64,000 bases of DNA. Source: Octopus vulgaris. Lineage: Eukaryota. This document shows, piece after piece, positions 5,833-61,641 of the stretch (positions are counted from its first letter, which is position 1; every line of letters begins with the position of its first letter). Location of the stretch: assembly GCA_951406725.2 (NCBI GenBank), contig OX597814.1:181040001-181104000 (forward strand), read 5' to 3'. Under the pieces are notes generated by a model that saw only the letters and a program-made list of their open reading frames with translations, was not told the DNA's origin and searched no databases. Made by a program: the position numbers and the translations under genes.

Positions 5833-5844
5833 GGTTCAACACTG
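5833..5844 (+). CDS. PPP3CA: Candidate 12-nt microexon of calcineurin A (xFNT, GFNT if upstream exon ends in G)
   Basis: tcag|GGTTCAACACTG|gtaagt: perfect donor, symmetric phase 1, open in frame. Upstream pyrimidine-rich tract with TGCATG at 5803-5808. Confidence 0.55.
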
Positions 5845-8462: not shown

Positions 8463-9445
8463 TACAGGGTAGGGCAGAGAGGATAGCCTTTTTTGAAAAT
8501 TTCACAAAATTATTCATTTTAGCTGCAAAAAAATTTCATTGGCATCAATGTATACATATTGAATTAGCATTTGTCAAAATCAAGTGTGGAAAACAAAATC
8601 CATCATGTGGTTTCCTTCTTCATTGATGCATTGCTCTGTTGATTTGGGTGACTTCCATTTGAATAGCTTCCTTCAAATCATCCAATGTACAGGGCTTTTG
8701 TGCACACACACGTGCCTTGAGGTTTCCCCACAAAAAATAATCACACTTGGACAAATCAGGGGACTGAGGAGGACAAGAAATGTCAGCAAACCTGAAAATA
8801 AGGCAGTCACCAAAGAGAGAACAAAGAATGTTCATTGATGCTCTGGCTGTGCGGCCTGTCACCCCATCCTGCTGAAACTACACACATGAATAGGCATACA
8901 TTTTCATCATAATTCAGGCACAAAGAAGTTGTTTATCATCTCAAGGTAATGCTCAGAGTTCACAGTAACAGTATTTCCATTATTGTCTTCAAAAAAGTAA
9001 GGACTAATGACAGCAGCTTTTACAACAGCACACCAGACTCTTACTTTTGGGCTATGCAGTGGTCTTTGGTGCAGTTCCCTTGGATTTTCAAAAGCCCAGT
9101 ACCAACAGTTCTGTTGATTCACCATGCCATTGAGATGAAAATGAGCTTCATCACTCATTAACAAAATAAGGTTGTCATTTGCCTCAAAAATTGCTTCCAT
9201 CTGACAGAGGAAGTTAAGCTGCTGTGCATAGTTTCATGGTTTCAACTGTTGCTCAGTGACCAATTTGTACAGGTGGAAACACAGGTCTTCATGCAAAATA
9301 TGCCTTACCAATGCCAAGTTCAGTAGAATGCCTCTGAGCAGAGCAATTCAGACTCTGTATCAAAGCTTGTCTGACGCGTTCCACATTTTCCAGGGTCCAT
9401 ACTGTTCATGGCACCCCCAGCTGATTTTGATTAAATTTGACATTT
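8463..9445 (-). mobile_element. Decayed Tc1/mariner-superfamily transposon
   Basis: Minus ORF fragments with SDEAHFHLNG and PPQSPDLSKCDYFLWG. Left end tacaggg. Confidence 0.85.
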
Positions 9446-11229: not shown

Positions 11230-12460
11230 TATGAGGTGGTATCAAAGAGTTCCCAGACTAGTTATGTTTAATAAAAAGTAACTTATTGACCTAAGTTTTT
11301 AACATCATCTCCTTCAAAATAGTCACTCTGCGCACCATTCCTGCCACTTTTGGAATCCAGCCTGGAAGTTGTTTTTCATAAGTGAGTCAAAGACTTTCTG
11401 TGATTCATTCTTGATTTCAACAATGGTGTTAAAACAGCAGCTTTTGAGCTGCATTTTCATCTTGGGGAAGAGAAGGAAGATGCTAAATCTGGCAAATAGG
11501 GAGGGTGTGGAAGCAATACCATGTTGTTTTGGGTGAAAAACTCATGAATGAGGAGAGCTCAGTGTGCACTGTCTCGTGAAGAATCCAGTTCTTTATGCTC
11601 CACAGATCTAGTTACTTTCACCAGATGTCCTCCTTCAAATGCTTCAAAACATCACAGTAGAACTCTCAATTGACAGTCTGGCCCTGGAGGATGAATTCTC
11701 AATGCACAATACCACAAATGTCAAAAAAAACGATGTGCATGCTCATGATTGAACTACTACTCTGTCGTGTCTTCTTCAGTTGTGGAGATGCAGGCCTCTT
11801 CCATTGTGATGACTGTTGCATCATCTCATGGTCGTACCCATAGACCCAACTTCCATCACTGGTGATGATCCTCAACATGAAGGATGGTTCATCAGTAGTA
11901 CACTGACGAAGATCTTGTCAGACTTCAACATGATGTCCTTTCTGCTGTGGTCAGCAGATAAGGGACAAACTTGGCAGACACACGCCACATATTCAATTCA
12001 GACATTAGGGTTGCCTGCACAGACCCATATGACAGACCAACAACATCAGCAATTTTGTTGATTGACCTTCGATGATCCTCATGCACAAGCTGATAAATCT
12101 TCTCCACATTCCTGGGGGTGACACTCATAGCAGGTCTTCCAGGTCGCTCATCATTTTCCAGGGACATCCTTCTGCTTTTGAAATGCCCATACCACTCAAA
12201 ACATTGCATACAACCCATTGCTTCATCGCCATAAGCTTGTCAAAGTGTGCTCTGTAGCAGACTTCCCAAGTTTAATGCAAAATTTTATGTTGGCTCTTTG
12301 TCCATGACAAAAACACGAATTTCACAAATTGTGAAATAAACAGTGATGTCACTCAGCACACTGCCTCATGAAGGTCACTACTAGCTCCCACAGTGCACAC
12401 AACCATGTACTACCATCTGTTGGTGTATTACAGAACTAGTCTGGGAACTTTTTGATACAT
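11230..12460 (-). mobile_element. Decayed mariner element
   Basis: TIR-like ends gtatcaaagagttcccagactagt / actagtctgggaactttttgatac. Minus ORF fragment with ERPGRP and VSAKFVP motifs. Confidence 0.85.
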
Positions 12461-19200: not shown

Positions 19201-20958
19201 GCATACCAAAGTGACTACTTCATATCAATGCATCCACAGAATACTCCCAAATTATTTCATCACTTAGACATTACCTGCTGTATTTCCATCCCAATATCCT
19301 ACAGACTTTTCACTCCTGCCTGTGTGCATGAAAGAAATCCCTATAAATACATGTAGGTAATCTCTGATTATATGTACTTTCTATGTTGATATTTACTCAG
19401 AATGTCCCCTCCCCCAACAAAAAAGAAAACAGTTATTATTGGCTATAAGAAAAGGTGAATGTTCGATTCTTTCTCTTAGTTTAGTAATACTAATATATCT
19501 ACTTCCCATACTAACTTAAGAGTCAGTAGAAAGTATGAACATCTCAGTATTGAACTGGTTAAAAAAATTGTCCTCAGTTTAAGCAAAAATGTAGTGTAAG
19601 TCAAGAGCTGTATTCCAATGTTATAGATATGTAGATCATGTTTGTATAATTTTTCTTTGTTTTTTTTTTCTTTTACTTTTTGCATATGTATTTTTGTCAT
19701 TGTGATTCTGGAGCTTTGATTTTCAAATGGTAACATTTTAATAGACTTAACTAATTATTTCTGTTTATATATATATTCGACTTTCACAGTTGGTATAATA
19801 TGATAGTATCTATAAAATAATAAATGTCAGTTTTGAGGACTCACTGATGACTCCATCAACAATATTGAACTATTAGCTATGAACTGCATTGTGCCTTGTC
19901 TGCAGCCCAAACAAGTCTGGTACAGTCCACTGAATTGTAAAATAAATATCATTATTGATAATAGCTCACTACTATAAGAAAGGTGACCAGTATATAAGCC
20001 AGTGTTGGAATAGCTTAAAATGTACAGTACACATCCTCCTGGGTTTGAAGCATGATAAATATGTTTATGCTGCAGTCCTGTTTAAACTAGATCTACATGT
20101 CCTCACATAAAAATGAATGAATCTGTTATTTTCACTCACATAGTGAAACACTGTGTTAATAAGTAAATCTAAGTTGCCAACCACTTGATATTTATAATTG
20201 ATTAAACCCATTGTAGTAGAAATCTACAAATCTCACCCCGCAGTGGAGTTAGCTTCAGAAAATGTATTGTTACTTTCCAGATATTTGTCATAGAAGTTAA
20301 CAAGGTGGAAATATGATAATCCAAAATCTGAAATTCCTAATTATTCCTTGCTGGGAAAGTATTTAATATTAACAGTTTAATAAAACAACTGTGATAAGCC
20401 AGCTGCATGAATTTGCTGTAATGTTGGTCTTTAATATATATCTTGCATACATTGCCTGCTTTGATCAGCCTATATCATGTCTCCCCACAGTTACTTTTCA
20501 TAAATAACACAAACTTTTTTTGTTTGTTTTTTTTTTTCCCCTTTCTGAAAAATTCTGTGTATTTTACTGTGTGTCTATTCATTTCCCATAAATAATCATC
20601 ACCATTTCATGAAGTTGGAATATTATCCAGCCATTTCAGATTGGGGCCTATTTAAACAGCTATGTAAGGGATAGAAATAGAAAGAAGTGACTGTTTTGTT
20701 TTGGGGGTTTTTTTTTGTAGGGGGTGTCTTTTTGGAGGTGGGTGGATTGAGAAAATACACAACCCCCATATGGACATGCTAGAAACATCAGATATGTCTT
20801 TTTCAAATCACTCTTCTCATCTTCAAAAAAAAAAGGTATGGACCAGATATACTAAGTTTGAGGGAAAAGTTGGGATGGGCATGGCAGAAACATCTTTGAT
20901 CATAGGTCTGCATGATCAGAGCTGACCTAAGGCTAAACAGCAACAGTTATTATGTTAA

Positions 20959-21111
<153 letters not shown>

Positions 21112-21708
21112 TGAGTATTATTTATACTTCTGATTTAGTGTGTTTATATTTCATTCACTAAGTCCAATGAATGAAACACTTACCAAGATTATTCTGTCTA
21201 TTTATATATACATTAAATCTTTCAAGCTTAATCAAACAGTCTTGTTGGCTCACTTATTTAGCTACATAATTTTAAATTAGGATTTCATCATTATATATTA
21301 ATGGGGCTCTTAATATGACTCTTTATTCCTATTATTACTTTCAATTAAATTATATTTTAGAACATTTCAAAATTCTGTTGGAAATTACTTTTCCTTTCAT
21401 TCTGCATATCAAAGTAGTAGTAATATAGTAAGATCATATCAATTGGCTATAATTTCTCTTGCCTTGCAAAATAAGTACTATGTCAAGAAGAGAAATCATT
21501 TTTATAGTATGCACCATGATTGGTAGTAACTTGGCCCACAATTTGGTTTTAATTAGCAAGAACAGAACCTTTTTATTACATTACTAATGCTCTTGAGTAA
21601 TATATGAACACAGCCACAATTTTCCATATCTTTCCTTTTCAAGATTAATTTCTATGTAATAAATTACTTACTTTTCATTCTGACAACTCATTGTTCTTTT
21701 CTTTACAG

Positions 21709-21806
21709 GGAAGAGAGCGAAAGCGTACTGCAGTTGAAGGGACTTACTCCAAATGGTTTGCTACCTCTCGGAGCGCTATCTGGTGGCAAAGATACTCTGA
21801 GAAGTG
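21709..21806 (+). CDS. PPP3CA: Calcineurin A exon following the CaM-binding domain
   Basis: tttacag acceptor, gtaagg donor. The 98-nt phase 2->1 exon reads (R)[32 protein letters not shown], in frame with the previous exon and matching the calcineurin EESESVLxLKGLTP motif. Confidence 0.97.
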
Positions 21807-21868
21807 GTAAGGCTGTCTTCATTCATAATTTAAGCATGAACTTGTTATTTCATATATATATATACATA

Positions 21869-22437
21869 CTAGCTGTTTTTTCCGGTTTCACCTGGGTAGT
21901 CTGGTTGATGTTGCAGTAAAACCTGCTATCTTCTAAATATTTACCTCCTCTTTGTATTCAAACACCAAAAATAAAGGTTAAAAAATATTTTAAGAAAACA
22001 AAAATTAGCAAAAAAAGGAAAAAACCCAAATTAATAAAAATGTTAAGTTGCCAATAGCTGCAGTAACTGGAAGGTTTCAGCAAACACATGCGCACGCACA
22101 CACGCACACACGCACCTTTACATACACACATATATATTCACACAGAGTTGAAACGCTGAAAAAAATAAATCCACAGAAAAATGGAAGTATATATATGAAA
22201 CCAAAAACCACTATATATATATATATATATAAATTTGACATCACCCCTTCCTCATTCATAAATACAAGAGTATTATTATAATAGATTATCTCAGTAACCA
22301 TGGGAGCTATGAAAAAAATACAAAGCCCAGCATCACCACTGGATCATTCTACACATCTGTGTAATTTTTCGTGCAATTCCACCCAATTCCATCCCAAGAC
22401 AAGAAAGAATCGCCCGTGTCAAATTTATACGTATAGA
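21869..22437 (-). mobile_element. Non-autonomous Helitron in a calcineurin intron
   Basis: Minus strand TC start, degenerate subterminal hairpin (ccaggtgaaaccgg) plus CTAG end, A|T insertion site. Confidence 0.65.
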
Positions 22438-23685
22438 TATATATATATGCTTACATGTATTTAATTCAATGGCAGTGAGTGGTGAGTCCACTTTGATGCA
22501 ATGATTATTGTGATTGGACATTACTCAACAGATACAAGGTTCATTTCTCATTGGTAATTTTGTCTGCTTTTTTTCTATTTTATACTGTGCTTGTGAATAT
22601 ATTCAAATCTTAACCATTTATAAATATATTTTTGCAAGAAGAGGGAAACAGTGACTTAAAAGTTTTGGCCTATTAGCCTTCACCAGAGAGTCCAATAAAG
22701 GCTAGCAGGTTGAAATTTTAAAGTCATTGTTGCCCCTCTTTGTGTAAAAGTATAATAAATATGTACACTATGAAAAGTACTGAATAATATATTTCAGTTT
22801 ACTGTTAAACTGTTTTTATTATAACTCAACATAAAAACAAACATATATATATATAGACCCCCTATGGTCATGAATGACCATGGAATTGCTCCTGCAAAGT
22901 TCCCCTCAGAAGCACAAGACTGGGCAAGGTCGTTTATGGAAGACCAGCAGTCACCCATGCATACCAGCCTCCCCTCTCCATGCCACCGATGTTATCCAAG
23001 GAAAAGGGCAAAGGCTGATACAGTTTAGCACCAGTGACGTCACAACTTATTTCTACAGCTGAGTGAACTGGAGCAGTGTGAAATAAAATGTCTTGCTCAA
23101 AAACACCACATACAGCCCAGTCTTGGAATCAAACTCACTACCTCATGATTGTGAGCCCGACACTCTAACCACTGAGCCATGCACCCTCAGTGATAATAGG
23201 GTAATAAAAATACAGAGTAAACAGTAAGAGAAAAGGAAACTGCATTGGTGATTAATAATTATTGATTATAAACAACAGCACTGCTATTCCTCATAATAAA
23301 TCAATTTATTCCACTGTTAAATCTTCCTAATAAAAATAAATATAGGTTATTGCTGATAACTGACTTTTCTGCTTCTGAATAATCTTGTGTATCAGCTACT
23401 CTTCACATCAGACTGAAATTCTACTTTTGGCATGCCTTTTTTCATGCACATTTAAGTTCCTTTATTCTCCTTAACAAAATTGATTTCAGTTTACTGAATA
23501 AGTTTTGATTAACTGATAATACTTTGCTTTCCTCTGGATGCAACGTATAATTTAAATTTAAAATGAAACTAGCATATGACTTCTACTAATGGATAATAGA
23601 GAGTTAAAACAGTAGTAATTTTTCTCATACATAACATTTTATAACGAGGACGATGAAAATATTGTACGTCTATATGTATATACAT

Positions 23686-23721
<36 letters not shown>

Positions 23722-23724
<3 letters not shown>

Positions 23725-24215
23725 GCTGGCAGAATCATTAGCAAGCCAGGCATAATGCTTAGCAGTATTTCGTCTGCCACTACTTTCTGAGTTCAAATTC
23801 CGCTGAGGTTGACTTTGCCTTTCAACCTTTTGGAGTCAATAAATTAAGTACCAGTGAAGCACTGGGGTCGATGTAATCAACTGGTCCCCTCCCCACAAAT
23901 TTCATGCCTTGTGCCCTTAGTAAAAGGGATTATTATTATTTTTATTATTATTATTATCATTATTATTATTATTATTATTATTATTAAGGCGGTAAGCTGG
24001 CAGAATCATTAGCTCACCAGGCAAAATGATTGTCAGCATTTCGTCTGTCTTTATGTTCTGAGTTCAAATTCTGCCAAGGTTAACTTTGCCTTTCATCCTT
24101 TTGGGGTCAATGAAATAAGTACCAGTTACACACTGGAGTCAATGTGATTGACTAGTCTCCTCCCCCCAAATTCCAAGCCTTGTGCCTATAGTAGACAGGA
24201 TTATTATTATTATTA
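23722..24215 (+). mobile_element. Two tandem SINE copies with (TTA)n tails
   Basis: Shared core gagttcaaatt...gactttgcctttca...aagtaccagt. Related copies at ~10680-10875, 41925-42135 (-), 45225-45390 (-), 55930-56125 (-) and 56330-56505. Confidence 0.85.
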
Positions 24216-25052
24216 TTAAACTTAAGTTAATTTTTACATACTAGACTGATATGTTTTAATAATGTACATTATCATACAGTCTTACTTTCTCCTAGTCTAG
24301 TTCAGTAAAAGGCATTAATCAACATTAATATCAATAATAGTATCTAACAGTTTCCTCACAATGCCTACAGTTAATTTATATTTCTAGCCTTGCTCAGGAT
24401 ACTACAATAACACTACTTCAAAAAACAAAACTGTTTATTCTACCATGATTTGTTTACACATAGATTAATTTCATTCATTCATAGTGTCCTACACAGCATT
24501 TTTGATAATTTGAAATGTGAAGTATACCTTTTTCTTTTAATAAACATTCGATTTTAGGTTTGGTGTGAGAAATAAATAAAGTGGTTACTCAGTAGATTTT
24601 ATCCCTCTATAGTCAGAAAACCTGGAATCAAAATGACTAGTGTTTAATCTTGTTAGAACTTGGTCAGCGAAAGAACACCCATCTTGTATTCACAGAGAGA
24701 TTAGTAGCTAATGGTTATTTACTGGTGAGATAAATCGTGTGGTTTGTATACACTGTAAATAGCTATAGGAACTACCAAATTTATGACTTGTTATATATGG
24801 CCATTTAGTAGATATTATGTATACCTTATAACTGGGCAACAAAAAGTTGAGGAAGCAACTACCTGTGACACAGCATCAAGCTAAATATGGTGTGTCTGTG
24901 TGCAGCAGATGAGATACATGAAGCTTGAAGCAATCAGCTGTTCTGAAAATCCTTCCCACCAATTCTGTAATTCTGTTAATATACAAAATATATGTGCTGT
25001 TGCATAAGTTTGAACTGTGTGAGAAGCACTATATATATATATATATATATAT

Positions 25053-25900
25053 ATACAAGGTGCGGCAAATAAACTGTCATCTAAATTACGCAGAAATGAA
25101 AATAACACTGACATCTCATTTCAACAGTTATATGATATATCTACCAAAATGACATAAAAATATCTTGAAATACTAAAGAGTAAATTTATTCAATAAAATT
25201 GCCATTGGCTTCAACCACAGCCTCCAGACAACTTAGGAATCTCCTGCAACTCTTCTGGACACTCTCCTTGTTTATGTTGACAAATGCTGCCATAATCCTT
25301 GACTTCAGTTCATCTTTGGTGTTACAAGTTTTGTCAGTCTCTCACTCATCTGCGCCCCACATAATAAAGGGGGTTGCAGTCTAGGGAGTTAGGTGACCAG
25401 ATGTTAAGGGTAATGCAGTTTCAGAAATTGCCTGATATCCATGACTGGGTTCTCCTGCTTGTGTGGTATGATACAGAGTCCTGTTGTCAGACATAGGGTC
25501 TTCCAGCAACCACCCTATTGACCTAGGGCAGCACTACCTCTTCCAGACACTTGATGTAGGCCTCCGTGTTGAGTTTGAGGCCATGTGGGAAGATGAATAG
25601 AGGCATAACATCGCCTTCCCTAGTGATCTCTCCAAACACCATGATGTTGACTGGATGTTTCATTTTTATCATTTTCAGTACATATCCTCAGACTGACACC
25701 CAAACACTCTGAAATGTTTGTATTGGAGCTTCCAGTGCAAATGCCAAGCAGTACAGCATGTCATTTCCAAATTTCTGGCAGAGTGAATTGCATCATGGTG
25801 CTGTTTTTCTTACAGACAGTGCCCATCTGGCCCTACTATACTGTACAGTTAACAAAATTAAAAATATGAAATGCCAACGATTTACCCATCGTACCCTATA
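25053..25900 (-). mobile_element. Decayed Tc1/mariner-superfamily relic
   Basis: TIR-like ends in TA context. Degenerate WSPNSLDCNP motif on the minus strand near 25370-25400. Confidence 0.6.
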
Positions 25901-26878
25901 TATACATATATATATATATATGGGTTGGACAGTTTTACTGAAAACTGGTAATCTCCCTGACTTACCAGTTTTCAGTCAAACTGTCCAACCCACCCATGCC
26001 AGCATAGAAAACAGGCATTAAATGATGATGATATATATATATATGTATATATATTGCATTATTTGTTCAAAACTAAGTATTTCAAAGTTTCCAGGGTTAC
26101 TCACTGTAATGTTATCCTTCTGTTAAAGGACACACATTGCAAGAAACTCTAACATCTGAATGAATCATCTTTTATCAAAATGAACTAAGCTCTATCACAT
26201 GTAACAAGTACTTTTTATTCTGTTTGTATATTCTCACATAAATATATTGCTTTATATATATTTTATATTTATGAAATTGTGTAAAGTTCTCTTTCAGTAT
26301 ATATTGTTTAATTCTTTTTCCTTTCCTTTTTTTTTAAAAAAAATGTTTTTGTATTGTTGTTTGCGATTTTACATTGTTTTAATTTCAGAACTTAGAAATA
26401 TCCTTTTATGGTTATAAAAAAAATAGAAACATTTAAAAACCAATATTAGCCTTAATGTTTCTCATTTTGGTTTTCACCGACAACCAAGGGAGCCTCTACA
26501 TAGCTGTTCAACTTGCTAGAAATAGCAAACAAATCTCCCTCAAGTTACACTATACCATCTTAGAAAAAAAGTGGCACATTGGATGATGTGGTCCTGGGTG
26601 CATTGTGCCTGGGAAGAAGACAGGATGGTCACAGCAAGAATGCCTTTGGTTATAGGTCTGTTTGATCAGACCTGAGGCTAAACAATAGCGACAACGATCT
26701 CCAAAGAATTTCAATCGTTCATTAGCTGTATTCACTTTAGTATTTGCTATATAAATCAGTACTGAGTTGGGGTACAAACACACTTATCTCAACTATGAAG
26801 TATTTTTCTTTTCATAGTCAGAGTGGAATATTTAATTTTTTCATTTCAATTTTTTAAATGTCTTTTTTATTCATTCAG

Positions 26879-26914
26879 CTATCGATAATCCGAACGAGGA
26901 ACCAGCTATCAAAG
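26879..26914 (+). CDS. PPP3CA: Candidate 36-nt cassette microexon of calcineurin A (AIDNPNEEPAIK)
   Basis: U-rich tract and ttcag acceptor, AAG|gttagt donor, symmetric phase 1, open in frame. CpG-containing island within an AT-rich intron. Same intron position as the vertebrate alternatively spliced 30-nt exon. Confidence 0.8.
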
Positions 26915-29373
26915 GTTAGTTTTCTATTTAGGATTGTATAGTTGAGAGACACTGGCATGTGCACGGCAGTCATAGGTAACTGTTTGTTTATTGGGGGTGC
27001 AAAGAGCAGCAACAAAACAATGGTGCAACACTTAAGTGCAGCAGGTTTGGGTCTAAATATCTCCATTATTTTTCTCTTCAATACACTGCATAATATAAAA
27101 CATCTTCATATTTTAATCAACCATGCTATCTAGCACAATCAGAAAATAAGTCACTACTGCTAATTGTGAATAACGTATTTTTTCCTACAATTCCTCACAT
27201 AGTTACATTCAGGGAAGCAGTACATGGTAATCTAAATGAGGAATTTGAAGATCAATGCCAATTAACTATATCCTTGCAGCTTTCACTCTGGCTTTTCCAT
27301 CCTAAAAGAAACTTTGGAGAAGATATTTCAGCCACTGCTTCAATTTCCATTGCCACTAAAATCTACTCCTAAAATCACTACATTGGTCCAAGAGGCATTT
27401 AGAAACCCATTGTTTAAAACATTACAACAAACTAGACATAATGGCTTTATCACTTAAAATAAATAGCACTCCAAAATGGGTTATTAGAATGTGTGAGGAT
27501 TAAGTTTGAAATTGATACAAAGAAAAATATTTGAAATTTATAAATTTACCTTTTATACCTCCTGGCACATTGCTAAAATTTACTCTAGGCTAAATATATC
27601 TACTAACTGCTTTATAAATATATGTAGAATAATTTCCTAAATAATAATTTTTTTAATTATTTCTGTTTAAAAGAAACACGAGAAAAATAAAATAAATACT
27701 TTTACTATATATTTTAACATGTTTTAATATTAGTTCTACTAAAATCTAAAAATTATGATATTTATGATGTAATTCACTCTAAAATATGCTATTTACATTT
27801 CTCAGCTTAATAATAAAATACTGCCAAAGTTGGAGAGACAATTTAACTTCATTGAGATTTTACCACATTACTGAAGGCTCCAAATACCCAGTGATTATAA
27901 ACCTTGAAATTCTAAAACATCGATGTAATGAAGTAAACAAACTAGTTGCTGTGATGAATTTCTCTAGCATTTTGTATAACCATCATAATATCATACAAAT
28001 GCATTATAATATGGATAAAATGAAAATGTAGTTGAACTTTAAAAATTTATGAGCCAAAATTTAGCTTTGACTCTAGATAGACCATTATATAAATGCCCAT
28101 CCCATCAATTATTAATAAACCATTTATTTAATCATTTAAATATTATATAATCTTCCCAACTTTTAAAGTTTTTTTTTTTTTTTCGTTTCATTTTTATTTT
28201 TTTGTTTCTTATTATTCACTATAATATACTTTCACTACACTAAACAAACTTTGTATTCTTTTATTGGCTGCTATTCAGTTCATGTTTCCTTGTTCAGTGC
28301 AAGATAAAACTATATGAAATAATTTAAACACTTATACTTTACAATATGAAAGTTATGTTAGAACCCATAATAGGTTTAAAATATATATTCAAAATAGTTA
28401 ATTATTGAGTAGGACATTTTAAGGGTTAAGGATGTTGTTTGTGTGGGACTTTTTTTTTTATTCTGTATTCACAAAAAAATTATTAGCATTTATGTTAATT
28501 ACTTTAAATATTTCTAAATCCTAATTATTTTTTATATAAACTAATTCGAATTAAGACTACTAATTTTGAAAAGCTCTAAAACAAAAACTGCTAGATTTTT
28601 AACTTAAATTTTATTATTTTAATGTTTTGGTTTTTTTTTTTTATTTTGCTAATTCAACTTTTATTATTATGTTACTTTGGCAAAGAATACCCAAGAAGCA
28701 CTTTTAAAATCCCTATTTGATGTAATAGTTCATATCAAAATAATTCTCTATCGGTAAAATGTTCATCCTACATATGAACTTGAACTTAAAGGATGTTTTT
28801 TCAACAGTTCAAATCAGACATAGTAGATAATATATTAATAGATCAATATGAATAACAGACTGTCCAAGTTGGCATGATTATTATACTAGAGAAGATTAGT
28901 CTTCTCAGAATCAGGATTCTAAAGTACTCAGTTAACTTCAAATAGCAACAGCCTAATGTTATTTCTGTTGGTTACAGAGATTACTTTAAATCTCACTACA
29001 TGTTTGACTTGGCAAAAGTCTTATTCATGTAGTGCATTCTGCTAACTAGAGTTAGTACGTAATCAGCCATCTAATTGTTTAATTGCTTCACATGTTTTTA
29101 CTTTTACATTATTCAAATAACAACGGTTCAGACTGATTCTTTGGTTTCCATTTGCTTATTTAAATATTTATTTGGCTTTGCTTTTAGCAAAATTCATCAA
29201 ATACAAGTAATTAGATTAATTGTTCCTTAAAAAAAAAACTGTCATTAGCTTTCATATAGTACCTGCTTTCTTTTGTGTTTCATCACGATTGCTGCTTCTG
29301 CTGCTGCTAGAAACTAATTTTTTTTTGTTGTTTTTGTTGATGTCTTGACTGTAGAAATAACTGTTGTTTATAG

Positions 29374-29421
29374 CTTCCTGTCTGGTTTTAGGCTGCTTTC
29401 CAAATTCAGTGTTGTCACACT
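29374..29421 (+). CDS. Candidate 48/30-nt cassette exon of calcineurin A with two in-frame acceptors
   Basis: Acceptors tatag|29374 and tttag|29392 share donor ACT|gtaagg. Both lengths are multiples of 3 and open in phase 1: ASCLVL-GCFPNSVLSH. Confidence 0.35.
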
Positions 29422-29807
29422 GTAAGGGTTTCGATTTTAGAGGAATTGATTGCTATAAAATCAACTGAAGTACAATGTGTGCTTGCTTGTTAGAAAATAT
29501 TAGCAAATATTAGCAAATGTTTCAAGTAATTCCAAAAACATGTCGAACTAGATAAAAAAATAAAAATAGATTAGCTTATTTAAAGTTGACTGAGTTTTCA
29601 AATTTCAAAGAATATGTCTGTAAAAGCTTCTTGAAACTACAAAAAATGTTTTATTTTTTATTTACCTATTTTTATGGAATTGCTATTATGATGATATCTG
29701 CTCATATATCTTCATATTGCCTGGAAGCATTTATAAACTCAATCAAATTTAAATAAAGGGCCGAAACAAGAAGCATTAGAACCACAACATCAGGCTAGCT
29801 GTGTTTT

Positions 29808-29953
<146 letters not shown>

Positions 29954-32860
29954 CAACATCATCTCAAACTTCTCCAAGTAGCTAAATATTTCTGTGACAG
30001 TCAGATTACTATTTACATTGCATCGACATGCAATGTAGCTACTCTTTCTGTTGCACCTTTTCACACACACATACCATCTGGAACTGATTGCCCTCCAATT
30101 TAGAGTCTCTTATCAGTCGATGTCAGTGAAATAGAAATCTGATGACTGACAAGCTGAGTGTGCAACCTAGTTTCTGTTCTTCATTGGAACCATTTTCTTC
30201 ATTATGTTGTTAATGCTTCTTGGAGAAGCATAACCATCACAAGTTCATGTTTCCCATCCTTAAAATTTAAGGTTTCAGTTCTATAAATGTGGTTATTGTC
30301 AGTAGTTTGAAGTGGAATGGGCTCTACCAGGTTGATCTGCTTTTTCAACATAATAGGAAGAGAGCAAACCAATAGAATTAGGGACGTTAGTTACAACTGC
30401 CTATATCTCGTCATCTTTTTGTTCGTGTGCCATATAAAGCAAATAGTGAATTTTTTGCCGTGTGATGTCAAAATTATTTTTTGTATTGCTTTCTTTTGTT
30501 AAAGTTGGGAAAATTATAACATTAGATACCACAAAAGCCAACTTCCAGCATGCATCAGTATTTGAATACTCTAAATGATTCAAATTTATTATGTGTAAAT
30601 TGCAACATAACCATTCATTTAAGAAAACATCTTGACAAAATATATTTCTGTCTCAAAAATATGTATTTAGTCAAAAGATTTTACTATCAAAAGATATTTT
30701 CAAATTTAGACCAAATAATATTAATGTCTTAATATTATTATTATTAAGTTTCTCTTATGCTTTTTAACTTCAACTTTAGCATATCTACAACATCATCCCA
30801 AGTGTGTGGCTCCTTATAAAATGTGGTAGCATTGTAGCCATTGCTGTAACAACAAACTGTTACTGTTTAAATCCCAAGTTTATCTGGTTTTCTCAAAGAT
30901 GTCTGCTAGGTGGCTAGAGATTACTGGCACTCTGAAATTAATACACACATTTCCAGCTTCATTATTCACAACAAAAATCTCACTTGAGCTGGAGACAGTC
31001 ACAGTAAACTGGAAGTGACAAATTTTAAAGCAGATTTAGTTCTTCAGATATTAGTACTGACTTTGTCTTCAATTTATTATTAAAAACGAAAATTAATATT
31101 TATTGTAGGCTTTGATTCATTAACTTCAAATCATTGAATTACAAAAATAATACACTAAAGTTTTAATTAAACTTGCTGGGAGATTGGTAGCACGTATTAT
31201 TAGACTAGATGTTTTGTTTTGTTTTGTTTTTTTTGAGACCTAGTCTATAAGGTGTTCTAAGAGCAACTTTTGTATCAAATAATTGCTTTTATTGTTTTTC
31301 TACATTGGTTTGTTAGTACAGATTGAATGTTAGAATTTCTGTCTCAGTATATGTTGGTTATTTTCTGTGTCCTCTGTTTCGTACCTGAGAATTGTGTTCT
31401 TTTGTGCTGATATAGAAGTAAAACAAAGAATGTGATTATCCACATGCATCTGTTTTGGTTCAACATACATACTCACATGTACATGAACATGTACACAATC
31501 ATCAGCTAAAACCATTTGGAATTGATTTTGATTGTATTAAACATTTCATAAATTCTATATCATATGACCATCAAACATGAACTTTTGGATATTATCTCAT
31601 TGATCATTACAACATACTGTACATTTATATAACAACTACTTTGACTTATCTAAAATCATTTCACTTACTGAAATTGATACATAGCTGAAAAATGATTGCA
31701 TGAACATTAGTCAACAGATGCAAATAATTTGAAGTTCTTGATTACATATAAATCATTTGAATAAAAATTGGCATCTGCCACGTTTGGCATCATCCGAACA
31801 TGGCCGATGCCAGCGCCGCCTTGACTGGCTTCTGTGCCGGTGGCACATAAAAAGCACCTACTACACTCATGGAGTGGTTGGCGTTAGGAAGGACATCCAG
31901 CTGTAGAAACACTGCCAGATCAGACTGGAGACTGGTGCAGCCTCCTGGCTTCCCAGACCCCGGCCGAACTATCCAACCCGTGCTAGCATGGAAAACAGAC
32001 ATTAAACGATGATGAAAGATTTTCTTAATAAACTAAAATGGAAATATTAATGCAAAATCTTCTCATTGATTTGTGTACTTTTACAGCTTCAATGAGAGTC
32101 TCTAATGACCTACAGTAAGATTTTGAAGTGTGAATAATATATTTAGGGACTGAGATGTTATTGTCTTCAGATAAACTGCCATCAGTATGTATTGCTGATA
32201 TTCTTTTATAAATATGATGGCTGTTGGTGTGAAAATAGATCATAACACACTTTGACTAAAATAGGAAGGTGTGACTGAGAAGAATTGAAAGTTTTTATAG
32301 AGAATTTACTTCAAAAAAAATGTCAGCTCCAAAAATAGCAGAAATACAATCTCGACTAATCCATTCCAATATGAGAAAATGGATGCAGTATTATTGATGC
32401 AATCAAATATTCATCTTGTTAGTATTAACAATTGCTGAGAAAGCACGCATACATAAAAACTCATTAAAAGTATATTTACAATACCTGAATGTTTAAGCAT
32501 ATTTTTTACAGACTTAAAAGAAAAACATTTAATCAATTTGATCATTAGTAATCAGAATTGTTAAATATGGTCATAAATTATAAAAAGTGCAATGATTTTA
32601 GTTAATAAAGTCAAACACATTAGAAATATTCACACTTTATCAAAACATCTTTTACATTTTTCTTTTACTTGGATTGGTTTAAAGTTTCCAAAATATTCAT
32701 TCATTCATTACTTTGTTTTTTGTTGTTTTTTTTTAAATTCATGTTATCTTGTTTATTTTCCAGCTGTTGGTTCTTACAAATTTGTATATGTATGTGTTTC
32801 ATAGAATTTGTTATTATTTGGTTATTTTTATCCTTTATTTTTTTCTTTATTTCATTGCAG

Positions 32861-32988
32861 CCCTCAGCGGTTTTTCTCCTACCCACAAAATAAGTGGGTT
32901 CGATGAAGCCAAGAGTTTGGATAAATTGAATGAACGCATGCCCCCGAGAAGAGATGCAGTCAATACCAATAACAAGGAGAAAGCGTAA
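32861..32988 (+). CDS. PPP3CA: Calcineurin A terminal coding exon (autoinhibitory domain)
   Basis: Long U tract and ttgcag acceptor, phase 1. Reads (A)[41 protein letters not shown], matching the AID motif FxEAKxLDxxNERMPP. Confidence 0.97.
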
Positions 32989-34017
32989 TGGGGGACAAAA
33001 ACCCTCTTCTCTCCACCAAGGCTGTTATTCTTCCGGGCTGGAGTCTACCATCACATGCAGGGGAACGAATGCTGAGCTCTGTGTGCAGGGTCCAGCTGTG
33101 AACAGCTCTGTTGATCTCACCTTGTACGATTTGCTACCTGGGATGTATGATTATATCAGAATTCAATGTATACATATTTTATACCTATTTAATGGTTCTT
33201 TACCCCTCCCCTGCTGGCAACCTGCAAATACAATTGGTAAATGCTGTTTTGTGATGTGATGTTTCTTTCCTTTTCTTCAATAAAAAAAATGCTTCCTTTC
33301 TAGTAAAAAAAAATTTAAAAAGTTAATAAATTATAAAACTATCTGAAAAATAAAATGTAAAAATTTAACATGAAAATTCATTATTAAATATGGTAATTTA
33401 CTGAGGTGAAGTGAGTTCAAACTTTTCGAATGCCACTAGGAAAGTTTAAAGTTTTCTTCAACTCTTTTATACCAGTTGTGTGGCAGTATTATTTATGAGG
33501 GAAGTTCATGAGCAGATGTTGCCAGGGATATTCCCAATATCAACATCTGGACTTAAATACTGCCTTGTCGTTGTATGCAAGCCTCTCATTGGGGTAGAAT
33601 TGATTCTTTCATCTTTTTACAAAATTTCCGAAACAAACACATTCTTTTAGTTTTAGCCCAATCTTTATTTTGAACTGTGGGCTAAAAAAAAATTATAATG
33701 ATGATGTGATGATGATGATGATAAAGATGATGATGATGATCAGAACTTCTTACATAGGCATTGAAGCCTTACTGTTAATTGAAGTAACATTATGGAAATG
33801 TTGCTCAATACTAAATTTGTTATATTAAATTTAAAGAATACTTTATCTGGCTTGTTTTAAATAGAATATGTTATCGAAAAAAACCTAACATATATATGTA
33901 TATATATATACATATGTATATATACATATATATACACATATATACATATATATATATGTGTGCGTGTGTGTGTCTGTCTGTGTGTATATATATATACATA
34001 TATATATGTATATATGC

Positions 34018-50705: not shown

Positions 50706-50800
50706 GTATATATATATATATATATATATAAATAAAATACAAAATATACATTAAGTGAAAACTAAATACTATAATTTCATCTATATACATTAAATTAAAT
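50588..50800. repeat. AT-rich inverted repeat with (TA)n centre
   Basis: ~65-bp arms (atttaatttaatgtatatagatgaaattatagtatttagttttcacttaatgtatattttgtat and its reverse complement) around a TA microsatellite. Confidence 0.85.
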
Positions 50801-51630
50801 CAAGAGGACAGATCCTGATGTCTACAACTCTTTCCTGCAATCAGACCTAGACACAATGCAGCAATGGATCACAGACTGGCAACTGAAACTGGCTGTGGAC
50901 AAGTGTACCACCATGCATTTTGGGAGAAAAAACCCTGCGTTCACATACTCCCTCCACAACACTGATATCAAGAAATCCTCTTGCGAGCGTGACCTAGGCA
51001 TCACTGTCAGCAGTGATTTGCGTTGGTCAAAGCATATCTCTAAGATTGTCAGGAAGGCCGAGGGTGTCTTGGCATCACTCAGCAGGTCTTTTGTTAGCCG
51101 CTCTCCAGCCATCTATTTAAAACTGTATACAGCTATGGTACGACCACACTTGGAATTCGCATCATCAGTTTGGAACCCCTATCTTGCACAGAACATTGAC
51201 CTCCTGGAATCTGTCCAGAGACGTGCAACCAAACGCATACCCTCCATCAGACACCTACCATATTCTGAGCGCCTTGTTTCCCTGGGCATGGATTCACTGA
51301 AGCTCCGGCGTTTGGCGACGGACTTGGTAAACACCCACAAAGTTATCAACCACCTCACCAACAACAACACTGAACACCTTTTTGATCTCCATGTGTCTAA
51401 CACACGTGGACATGCCTACAAAGTCAGAAAACAATACAGCTCCCATGACTTTCGGAAACATTTTTTCACGCTCAGAGTTGCTGAAGCATGGAATAAACTG
51501 CCTGCGTCAGTTGTTGACTGCCATGACACTGCATCTTTTAAGGCCCTCATGCTTTCCGAAATCCGCCGAAACTACACCTGATTATATATACACTTTAGAT
51601 GAGTTGTAGTGCACCTGAGCACTGTACACA

Positions 51631-60398: not shown

Positions 60399-61641
60399 CG
60401 AGGGACGTTCAATAAGTAATGCCTCTGACCCACTTGCAGTTGTTTGATCTAGCTGAAATTTTGCATGTGCAATCATTTATATCTCTATAGAGTAAGTGGC
60501 AAATTACAGCTCTGAATTAATTGTGGTTTCTGATTTACAGGTGTTTGAACCGAGTCAAGTGTGAAATGGAGCCTGTTGAGTGTCGAGCAGTGATCCGGTT
60601 TTTGTATTTGAAAAGACGCACACCAAGGGAGACTTTTGATGAAATGAAAGTAACTTATGGTGATGATGCCCCATCATATGACCTTGTAAAACGCTGGCAT
60701 CGTGAATTCAAACATGGTCGGAACTCTGTGGAAACAGCTCCCAGATCTGGTTGCCCCCTTCTGCCATTGATGAGGCATCTGTCCGTCAAGTTGATGCTGC
60801 CATTTTGGAAGATCGACGCATAACTATTCGCCAAATAGCCCATGAGGTCAAGATTAGTACCGGGTCTGTGGAAACTATCATTCATGACCATTTGCATATG
60901 CAAAAGGTGTCTGCCAGATGGATTCCCAGGTTGCTCACGCCTTTCCAGAAGCAAGAACGCGTTGAGTGCTTGAGGGTGAATTTGGAGATGTGCCAAAATT
61001 TTTCAAAAGACTGATTACACAGGATGAAACCTGGATCCATCACGATGATCCAGAGACCAAAGCCCAGTCAATGCAGTGGAAGCACCGTGACTCACCCCCT
61101 CCAAAGGCAAGGTCATGCTCAGTCTCCTGGGACCAGGACGGAGTAGTGATGACAGATTTCCTGGCAAAGGGTACCACAATTGCAGGAGCCTATTATGCTT
61201 CACTTTTGAGGAAATTAAGAGAAGTTATCAAAATCAAGAGGCGGGGTAAGATCAGCAAAGGCATCCTCCTCCTGCAGGACAACGCTCCGGTCCACAACTC
61301 GCTTGTCGCCAGATCAGCACAGGCGTATGGCTATGAACTCCTCCCCCCCTACTTTCCTGACCTTGCACCCTCTGATTTTCACCTCTTCCCAGTCATGAAG
61401 TTGTTTTTGAAAGGAAAGTGTTTCCCAGATGATGCAGCCTTGATTTCTGAAGTCACATTCAGGTTGGAGGACCAAGCTGGGGTCTTCTACAAAAACGGTC
61501 TCCAGAGCTGCATCAAACAATGGGAAAAATGCGTAACTCTGGGTGGTTCCTATGTAGAAAAAGACTAATAACTGTGCCAAGTTCCGTTGCTCTACTGGTA
61601 TGGGAAGTGGGTCAGGGGCATTACTTATTGAACGCCCCTCG
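60399..61641 (+). mobile_element. Near full-length mariner transposon
   Basis: TIRs cgagggacgttcaataagtaatgcctctgaccca / tgggtcaggggcattacttattgaacgcccctcg, TA target duplication on both sides, ~1.24 kb. Confidence 0.95.
60566..61568 (+). pseudogene. Frameshifted mariner transposase
   Basis: Three overlapping ORF pieces carry the HTH region, WIPRLL, DETW, QDNA and PDLAPSDFHLF motifs, with at least two frameshifts and small deletions. Confidence 0.92.

Follow-up and report, generated by a model that had tools for sequence, protein, structure and literature searches.

The 36-nt segment at positions 26879-26914 (forward strand) of the stretch analyzed here, a window of 64,000 nucleotides from Octopus vulgaris contig OX597814.1, is a real, alternatively spliced and already annotated exon of octopus calcineurin A. 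This is established by a splice junction from 21806 to 26879, by loose contig ends that run on into the exon at 32861, and by the identical peptide in RefSeq models of two Octopus species. The exon adds residues to LR2, which links the calmodulin-binding helix to the autoinhibitory domain (AID) and has been published as a splicing hotspot. Although already present in RefSeq, it is a new lineage member of that hotspot, and sequence comparison suggests that it is likely convergent. On balance we consider it probable that this is a cassette exon born independently within coleoid cephalopods, which would tune the release of autoinhibition by Ca2+/calmodulin.

The calcineurin A gene in the window

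A calcineurin A gene lies in the window with its 3′ part. Inside their boundaries, four exons of the window are 100% identical to an Octopus protein (P0012) that matches human calcineurin (PDB ID: 1AUI) with E=2e-284, and the encoded calmodulin-binding helix, LR2 and autoinhibitory domain identify the gene as calcineurin A (PPP3C). The calmodulin-binding helix exon (21026-21110, forward strand), 100% identical to P0012 and P0013, has two acceptors 9 nt apart, at 21026 and 21035, giving forms with and without AQP; both forms occur among the models (P0012, P0013), and public run X11, which contains the junction of this exon to 21709, supports the downstream acceptor with a loose end before 21033. 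The next exon (21709-21806, forward strand) encodes the first part of LR2, ends with KDTLRS in phase 1 and is followed by the donor GTAAGG; its start, after the AG at 21707-8, and its end at 21806 are a small correction to the earlier reading. The coding part of the last exon (32861-32988, forward strand) begins with ALSGFSP, encodes the autoinhibitory domain and closes with a stop codon at 32986-8, and an AATAAA lies 3′ of it at 33279.

Two further optional exons of the same gene lie in LR1, a 93-nt poly-Q exon (2294-2386) and a 12-nt exon encoding GFNT (5833-5844). Both are present in O. sinensis RefSeq models, the poly-Q exon matching the O. sinensis model exactly and O. bimaculoides with one residue of difference, which points to O. 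sinensis or a species very near it as the source of the window; O. bimaculoides models translate the 93-nt exon in another frame, as poly-N. An acceptor of good appearance, 97 nt ahead of the last exon (32764-32804), would give an alternative end without the autoinhibitory domain, comparable to CnA-beta1; no protein support for this end was seen among the models, and the stretch to which run contigs were mapped (20900-29700) ends before it. Elsewhere in the window, open reading frames at 50799-51581 and 60521-61568 on the forward strand and at 8620-9233 and 11699-12239 on the reverse strand resemble the tail of a LINE reverse transcriptase and broken transposases of the mariner/Tc1 type.

The exon and its splice sites

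Read in phase 1, the exon at 26879-26914 (phase 1/1) encodes AIDNPNEEPAIK, inserted between KDTLRS and ALSGFSP and adding 12 residues, of which three are acidic, one is basic and two are prolines; the insert itself contains no Ser, Thr or Tyr. Its acceptor region (26826-26878, forward strand) is a U-rich, AG-free zone of about 53 nt that ends in CAG, with no TGC within 134 nt. The donor GTTAGT (26915-26920, forward strand) scores 7.9 bits, compared with 9.9 and 12.7 for the two flanking constitutive donors, on an approximate matrix that makes these values rough. These features agree with the sequence-only reading, which had proposed a frame-keeping 36-nt exon with a U-rich tract, a CAG acceptor and a GTTAGT donor. 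When all in-frame YAG..GT candidates in the 11-kb intron were ranked by the same kind of rough score, the exon came 3rd of 174, a rank that by itself would not prove it. A shorter 9-nt form entered at the internal CAG (26903-5) was rejected: it has no pyrimidine tract and occurs in no protein and no listed junction.

The 8-mer CAGCTATC is found at the acceptor (26876-26883) and again inside the exon (26903-26910), 27 nt apart, and matches four times in the 64-kb window where 1.2 matches are expected. This repeat may hint at a short duplication in the origin of the exon. The flanks of the exon were compared with local repeats and are not one of them.

Inclusion and skipping in transcripts and models

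Contigs from four public runs (X6, X8, X9 and X11), which carry no tissue labels and are presumed to be RNA, were mapped to positions 20900-29700. The GT..AG junction from 21806 to 26879 is present at a depth of 492 in X6 and 468 in X11, and in both runs the loose letters that follow 26914 match the start of the exon at 32861; intronic contigs beside the exon have a depth of about 6-17. Both junctions predicted from the letters, 21806 to 26879 and 26914 to 32861, are thus represented in the contigs of two of the four runs, while X8 and X9, in which the exon is uncovered and the gene barely covered, are uninformative either way. In X11 the depth value is the same at the upstream and inclusion junctions and a long loose end follows; in X6 both sides at the exon have about 30 letters. 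This would fit a path that does not branch in X11 and one that does in X6, and contigs of this kind cannot give levels. The skip junction from 21806 to 32861 lies outside the mapped stretch, and the skipped form is known from database models. The intronic contigs of X6 and X11 also have A-to-G differences at 22658, 22720 and 25219, at low depth, which could be RNA editing or alleles.

Among the named Octopus models listed, 10 of 15 include the insert and five skip it. RefSeq holds both forms, as automatic models, for O. sinensis (XP_029638432 with the exon, XP_029640434 without) and for O. bimaculoides (XP_014777769 with, XP_014777765 without), and the insert peptide and its flanks are identical in the two species. 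The exon, which the sequence-only reading called invisible to the ORF track, is therefore not hidden from annotation. The insert is also carried by all four further transcript-assembly proteins that are 97.8-98.4% identical to Octopus, unchanged in one (P0023, 37 contigs) and with two changes in another (P0024, 7 contigs). Proteins of this type differ from Octopus at 8-11 other positions yet keep the peptide, with 9-11 of 11 insert residues retained. Since the O. sinensis and O. bimaculoides calcineurins are 100% identical over their aligned length, the 97.8-98.4% proteins are likely more distant coleoids, and a quick tree places them as sister to Octopus with a support of 99. The inserted peptide, which the sequence-only reading had proposed to look for in related molluscs, is thus present in O. 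sinensis, O. bimaculoides and four near-identical assembled proteins. When metagenome contigs were scanned with a degenerate motif, no further cephalopod copies were found.

Position at the LR2 junction shared with vertebrate exon 13

Exon 13 of vertebrate PPP3CA occupies the same junction as the octopus insert, after the calmodulin-binding helix and ahead of the autoinhibitory domain. The proposed vertebrate parallel, an acidic 10-residue cassette of PPP3CA/B at this site, is borne out by PDB sequences that exist with and without the insert and by its identification as the 30-nt exon 13, which is reported to be used more in the nervous system (PMC11662586, available text). Protein alignment likewise confirms that the octopus cassette falls at this junction, just before the AID, and is mildly acidic. 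The description of the vertebrate exon as neural holds only as far as its higher use in the nervous system, since muscle, heart and testis of the adult mouse include exon 13 as well (bioRxiv 124230, available text).

Junction and phase are the same in octopus and vertebrates, the vertebrate phase being taken from fish protein models and not from DNA. In fish models that read into the intron, a Gly directly follows TLQS or TIQS; the same codon is followed by Gly on read-through in the octopus intron and in arthropod-like, flatworm-like and more distant read-through gene calls. We therefore infer that the host intron is one ancient phase-1 intron. Any new frame-keeping exon within such an intron would fall at the same codon, and the shared position is accordingly weak evidence of common descent.

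Possible regulation of inclusion

Downstream of the exon, GCATG (+41) and GCACG (+47) lie at 26955-26965 (forward strand). These are the two primary Rbfox motifs, for which a downstream position has been linked to inclusion (bioRxiv 840272, available text), and they are candidate inclusion elements here. Of 2591 intronic 100-nt windows, 0.19% contain both motifs, as do 0.4% of shuffles; these figures are post hoc, nine motifs having been tried. By contrast, UGC near the 3′ splice site, which the available text of bioRxiv 2021.02.24.432780 gives as a signature of SRRM3/4 (eMIC) regulation, was not found: the nearest TGC is 134 nt upstream of the acceptor. In this respect the eMIC/SRRM signature is missing. 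The AG-free zone measures 53 nt, against 54-77 nt at the constitutive acceptors of the same gene. The exon, at 36 nt, also exceeds the strict length of SRRM3/4 microexons (3-27 nt in the available source text). With this length and no UGC near the acceptor, the exon does not fit the strict SRRM3/4 class; a looser microexon limit of 51 nt would include it. Inclusion would be tissue-regulated, probably through the downstream Rbfox motifs and not through SRRM3/4.

Proposed effect on autoinhibition

On calmodulin, residues 441-458 (K441-I458) of human calcineurin fold into a distal helix of marginal stability, in which replacing Ala with Glu reduces activity (PMC7456046, available text); the alanines concerned are A451, A454 and A457 (bioRxiv 665158, available text). 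An alignment of PDB sequences shows that vertebrate exon 13 makes up the middle, or helical core, of this segment. The octopus insert falls in the equivalent segment, which in the human protein folds on calmodulin and pulls the AID away, and would lengthen the linker between the calmodulin-binding helix and the AID by 12 residues. With its two prolines it lacks, as judged from sequence, the helix-compatible core of exon 13, and on an approximate scale its mean helix penalty is 0.85, compared with 0.29-0.53 for vertebrate inserts. An AlphaFold2 model built from a 38-row alignment reached a mean pLDDT of only 45.8 and was unusable.

Two prolines in the distal-helix segment would be expected to break a continuous helix and leave an acidic, helix-breaking spacer, which would change the coupling of calmodulin binding to AID release, so that inclusion of the exon would tune how fully calcium/calmodulin releases autoinhibition. 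As to direction, we lean slightly towards a long form that, compared with the short one, would have somewhat lower activity or be activated later. Lower activity of the long form is also the direction inferred for mouse, where forced skipping of exon 13 in muscle drives NFATc2/3 into nuclei (bioRxiv 124230, available text). The literature is in conflict on this point: activation is promoted by the distal helix, but in mouse it is the isoform without exon 13 that appears to be the more active one.

It is also conceivable, though in our judgment unlikely, that an independently gained insert acts through a binding or modification site, localization or stability and not through autoinhibition. The near-invariance of the peptide across likely distant coleoids suggests that its sequence matters and not only its length; the available text of the mouse study raises interaction and modification effects (bioRxiv 124230), and that of a worm study finds isoform-specific phosphoregulation (PMC12503234). 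Against this, the octopus insert is without Ser, Thr or Tyr, no motif is common across lineages, and the insertion site lies within a segment tied to activation (PMC7456046, available text). We retain an effect on calmodulin-dependent AID release as the preferred reading.

Distribution and origin of LR2 inserts

Among the sequences listed, many of which are isoforms of the same few genera, an insert at this junction was found in none of 77 non-cephalopod molluscs (bivalves 0/55, gastropods 0/20, chitons 0/2), none of four sequences from Lingula, Owenia and siboglinids, none of four flatworms, none of three priapulid sequences, none of nine acoels (two more being unscorable) and none of seven tunicates (one more unscorable), and the named arthropod sequences have no insert or one extra alanine; the third search query itself lacked the insert and so favors short forms. 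The sampling contained no amphioxus, echinoderms, hemichordates, cyclostomes or Nautilus. As a control, LR1 variants of small size are resolved in the annotations used here, 13 of them among 16 oyster models and 4 among 6 abalone models. A search of 50%-representative sequences returned 150 proteins, mostly partial, of which 63 span the junction among the matches listed; one clear vertebrate-type insert was the only one of its kind, and several longer ones resemble intron read-through. Acidic inserts were seen in two of 20 annelid-like proteins listed, AEEG (+4) in P0044 and DLARVQEDPE (+10) in P0217, each from one assembled contig and each sister to an insert-less protein in a quick tree.

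Within the same quick tree, a vertebrate clade (P0100, P0106, P0133, P0245 and P0124) has a 16-residue insert in sharks and coelacanth and a diverged 10-residue insert in a salmonid. In acoel models P0220-P0232 the upstream LR2 exon comes in two alternating versions of equal length, a pattern that looks like mutually exclusive splicing as in nematodes.

Compared with eight of nine vertebrate inserts, the octopus peptide is no more similar than shuffles (p 0.27-0.94), a comparison of low power at 10-12 residues, and it reaches p=0.018 with the salmonid insert (P0124), in one of 12 tests. The octopus insert has two prolines, and all nine vertebrate inserts have none. The lack of likeness beyond shuffles in eight of nine cases, the prolines and the absence of inserts from other molluscs and tunicates together indicate that the exon was probably gained independently of exon 13 in vertebrates, with coleoid cephalopods as its likely place of origin. 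All LR2 inserts are net acidic, as are only 4% (228/5596) of the open 11-codon stretches in the octopus intron; such acidity may reflect purine-rich splicing enhancers instead of selection on the protein.

That the common ancestor of octopus and vertebrates already had an acidic cassette in this intron, which then diverged and was mostly lost, we regard as improbable. Junction and phase are alike, lengths are comparable (12 residues against 9-16) and all inserts are net negative; the annelid-like inserts, one of them of 10 residues, count against independent origin in that they too are explicable by an ancestral exon, and the salmonid insert is weakly similar to both the octopus insert (p 0.018) and the 10-residue annelid-like one (p 0.024). 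Peptides of 10-12 residues can, moreover, lose all likeness over more than 550 million years. Such an ancestor would, however, require losses in tunicates, arthropods, priapulids, chitons, gastropods, bivalves, the brachiopod and the other annelids, and the exon is highly conserved within vertebrates and within cephalopods but not between them. The salmonid form looks derived, as its shark and coelacanth clade-mates in the quick tree keep the ATVEAIE type, and repeated gains at equivalent sites are reported to be common (bioRxiv 2026.09.05.749416, available text). Where the sequence-only reading had set deep conservation beside convergence, the cassette has proved real and convergence is favored, whereas deep conservation is left weak by the shuffles and the insert-less lineages.

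That the exon is instead tolerated and near-neutral, in a disordered linker that accepts insertions as exons drift in and out, is very unlikely, for although LR1 of the same gene has many lineage-specific inserts, some of low complexity, and the LR2 insert is absent from most animals among the sequences listed, proteins with differences at 8-11 other positions have kept the peptide, and the inclusion junction is the high-depth path in two runs.

Discussion

With the octopus exon, a hotspot whose origin stood open in 2025 extends to molluscs and possibly to annelids, and the distribution of inserts points to repeated gain at the LR2 junction. The proline-bearing octopus insert is a natural variant that could help to separate linker length and charge from the distal helix as the means by which LR2 exons act. 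A bolder proposal, which we offer tentatively and consider somewhat doubtful, is that an ancient intron gained an acidic cassette at least three times (in vertebrates, in coleoids and in one or two annelid lineages), that the coleoid exon would be a brain-enriched, Rbfox-driven switch, and that two large-brained lineages may have converged on calcineurin autoinhibition at one codon by opposite structures, a helix-building insert and a proline-broken spacer.

Literature searches on microexons and PPP3CA and on calcineurin and cephalopod splicing found no published study of the octopus exon. Frequent recurrence of neural exons at equivalent sites is reported in the available text of a survey of 20 bilaterians, among them O. 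bimaculoides, amphioxus and sea urchin (10.64898/2026.09.05.749416); calcineurin is not named in the available part of the main text, and the octopus exon may be listed in the supplements. Rudgalvyte and Glauser (2025, PMC12503234) describe LR2 of calcineurin A as a hotspot of splicing in human, mouse, zebrafish and nematodes, find no shared motif and leave conservation or convergence open; molluscs and cephalopods are unmentioned in the available text of that paper. The octopus gene belongs with these cases, as its longer and shorter forms keep the frame and differ at the C-terminal end of LR2.

Compared with the Octopus RefSeq isoforms, the window has the same 12-residue insert, the same flanks and, in O. 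sinensis, the same poly-Q LR1 exon, with no difference. The SRRM3/4 (eMIC) microexons resemble the octopus exon in being small and frame-keeping and in a signaling gene, and perhaps in the long AG-free acceptor zone, which at 53 nt does not exceed those of the constitutive acceptors, but the octopus exon is longer than 27 nt and has no UGC near its acceptor and no UCUC-rich tract. In C. elegans tax-6, exons 13a/13bc likewise yield LR2 variants of two lengths that differ at this site, and the phyla have no motif in common (PMC12503234, available text); nematode neurons use the short form; nematodes, Pristionchus among them, achieve this with mutually exclusive copies of the upstream exon, whereas octopus uses a cassette exon. 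Exon 13 of vertebrate PPP3CA and PPP3CB is a frame-keeping, acidic cassette at the same junction that also yields long and short LR2 forms and whose splicing in mouse Ppp3ca responds to CELF1/MBNL1 (bioRxiv 124230, available text). The octopus exon differs from it in length (36 against 30 nt), shows no detectable sequence likeness to it, and carries two prolines where the vertebrate exon has the helix-favoring Ala/Glu pattern of the distal-helix core.
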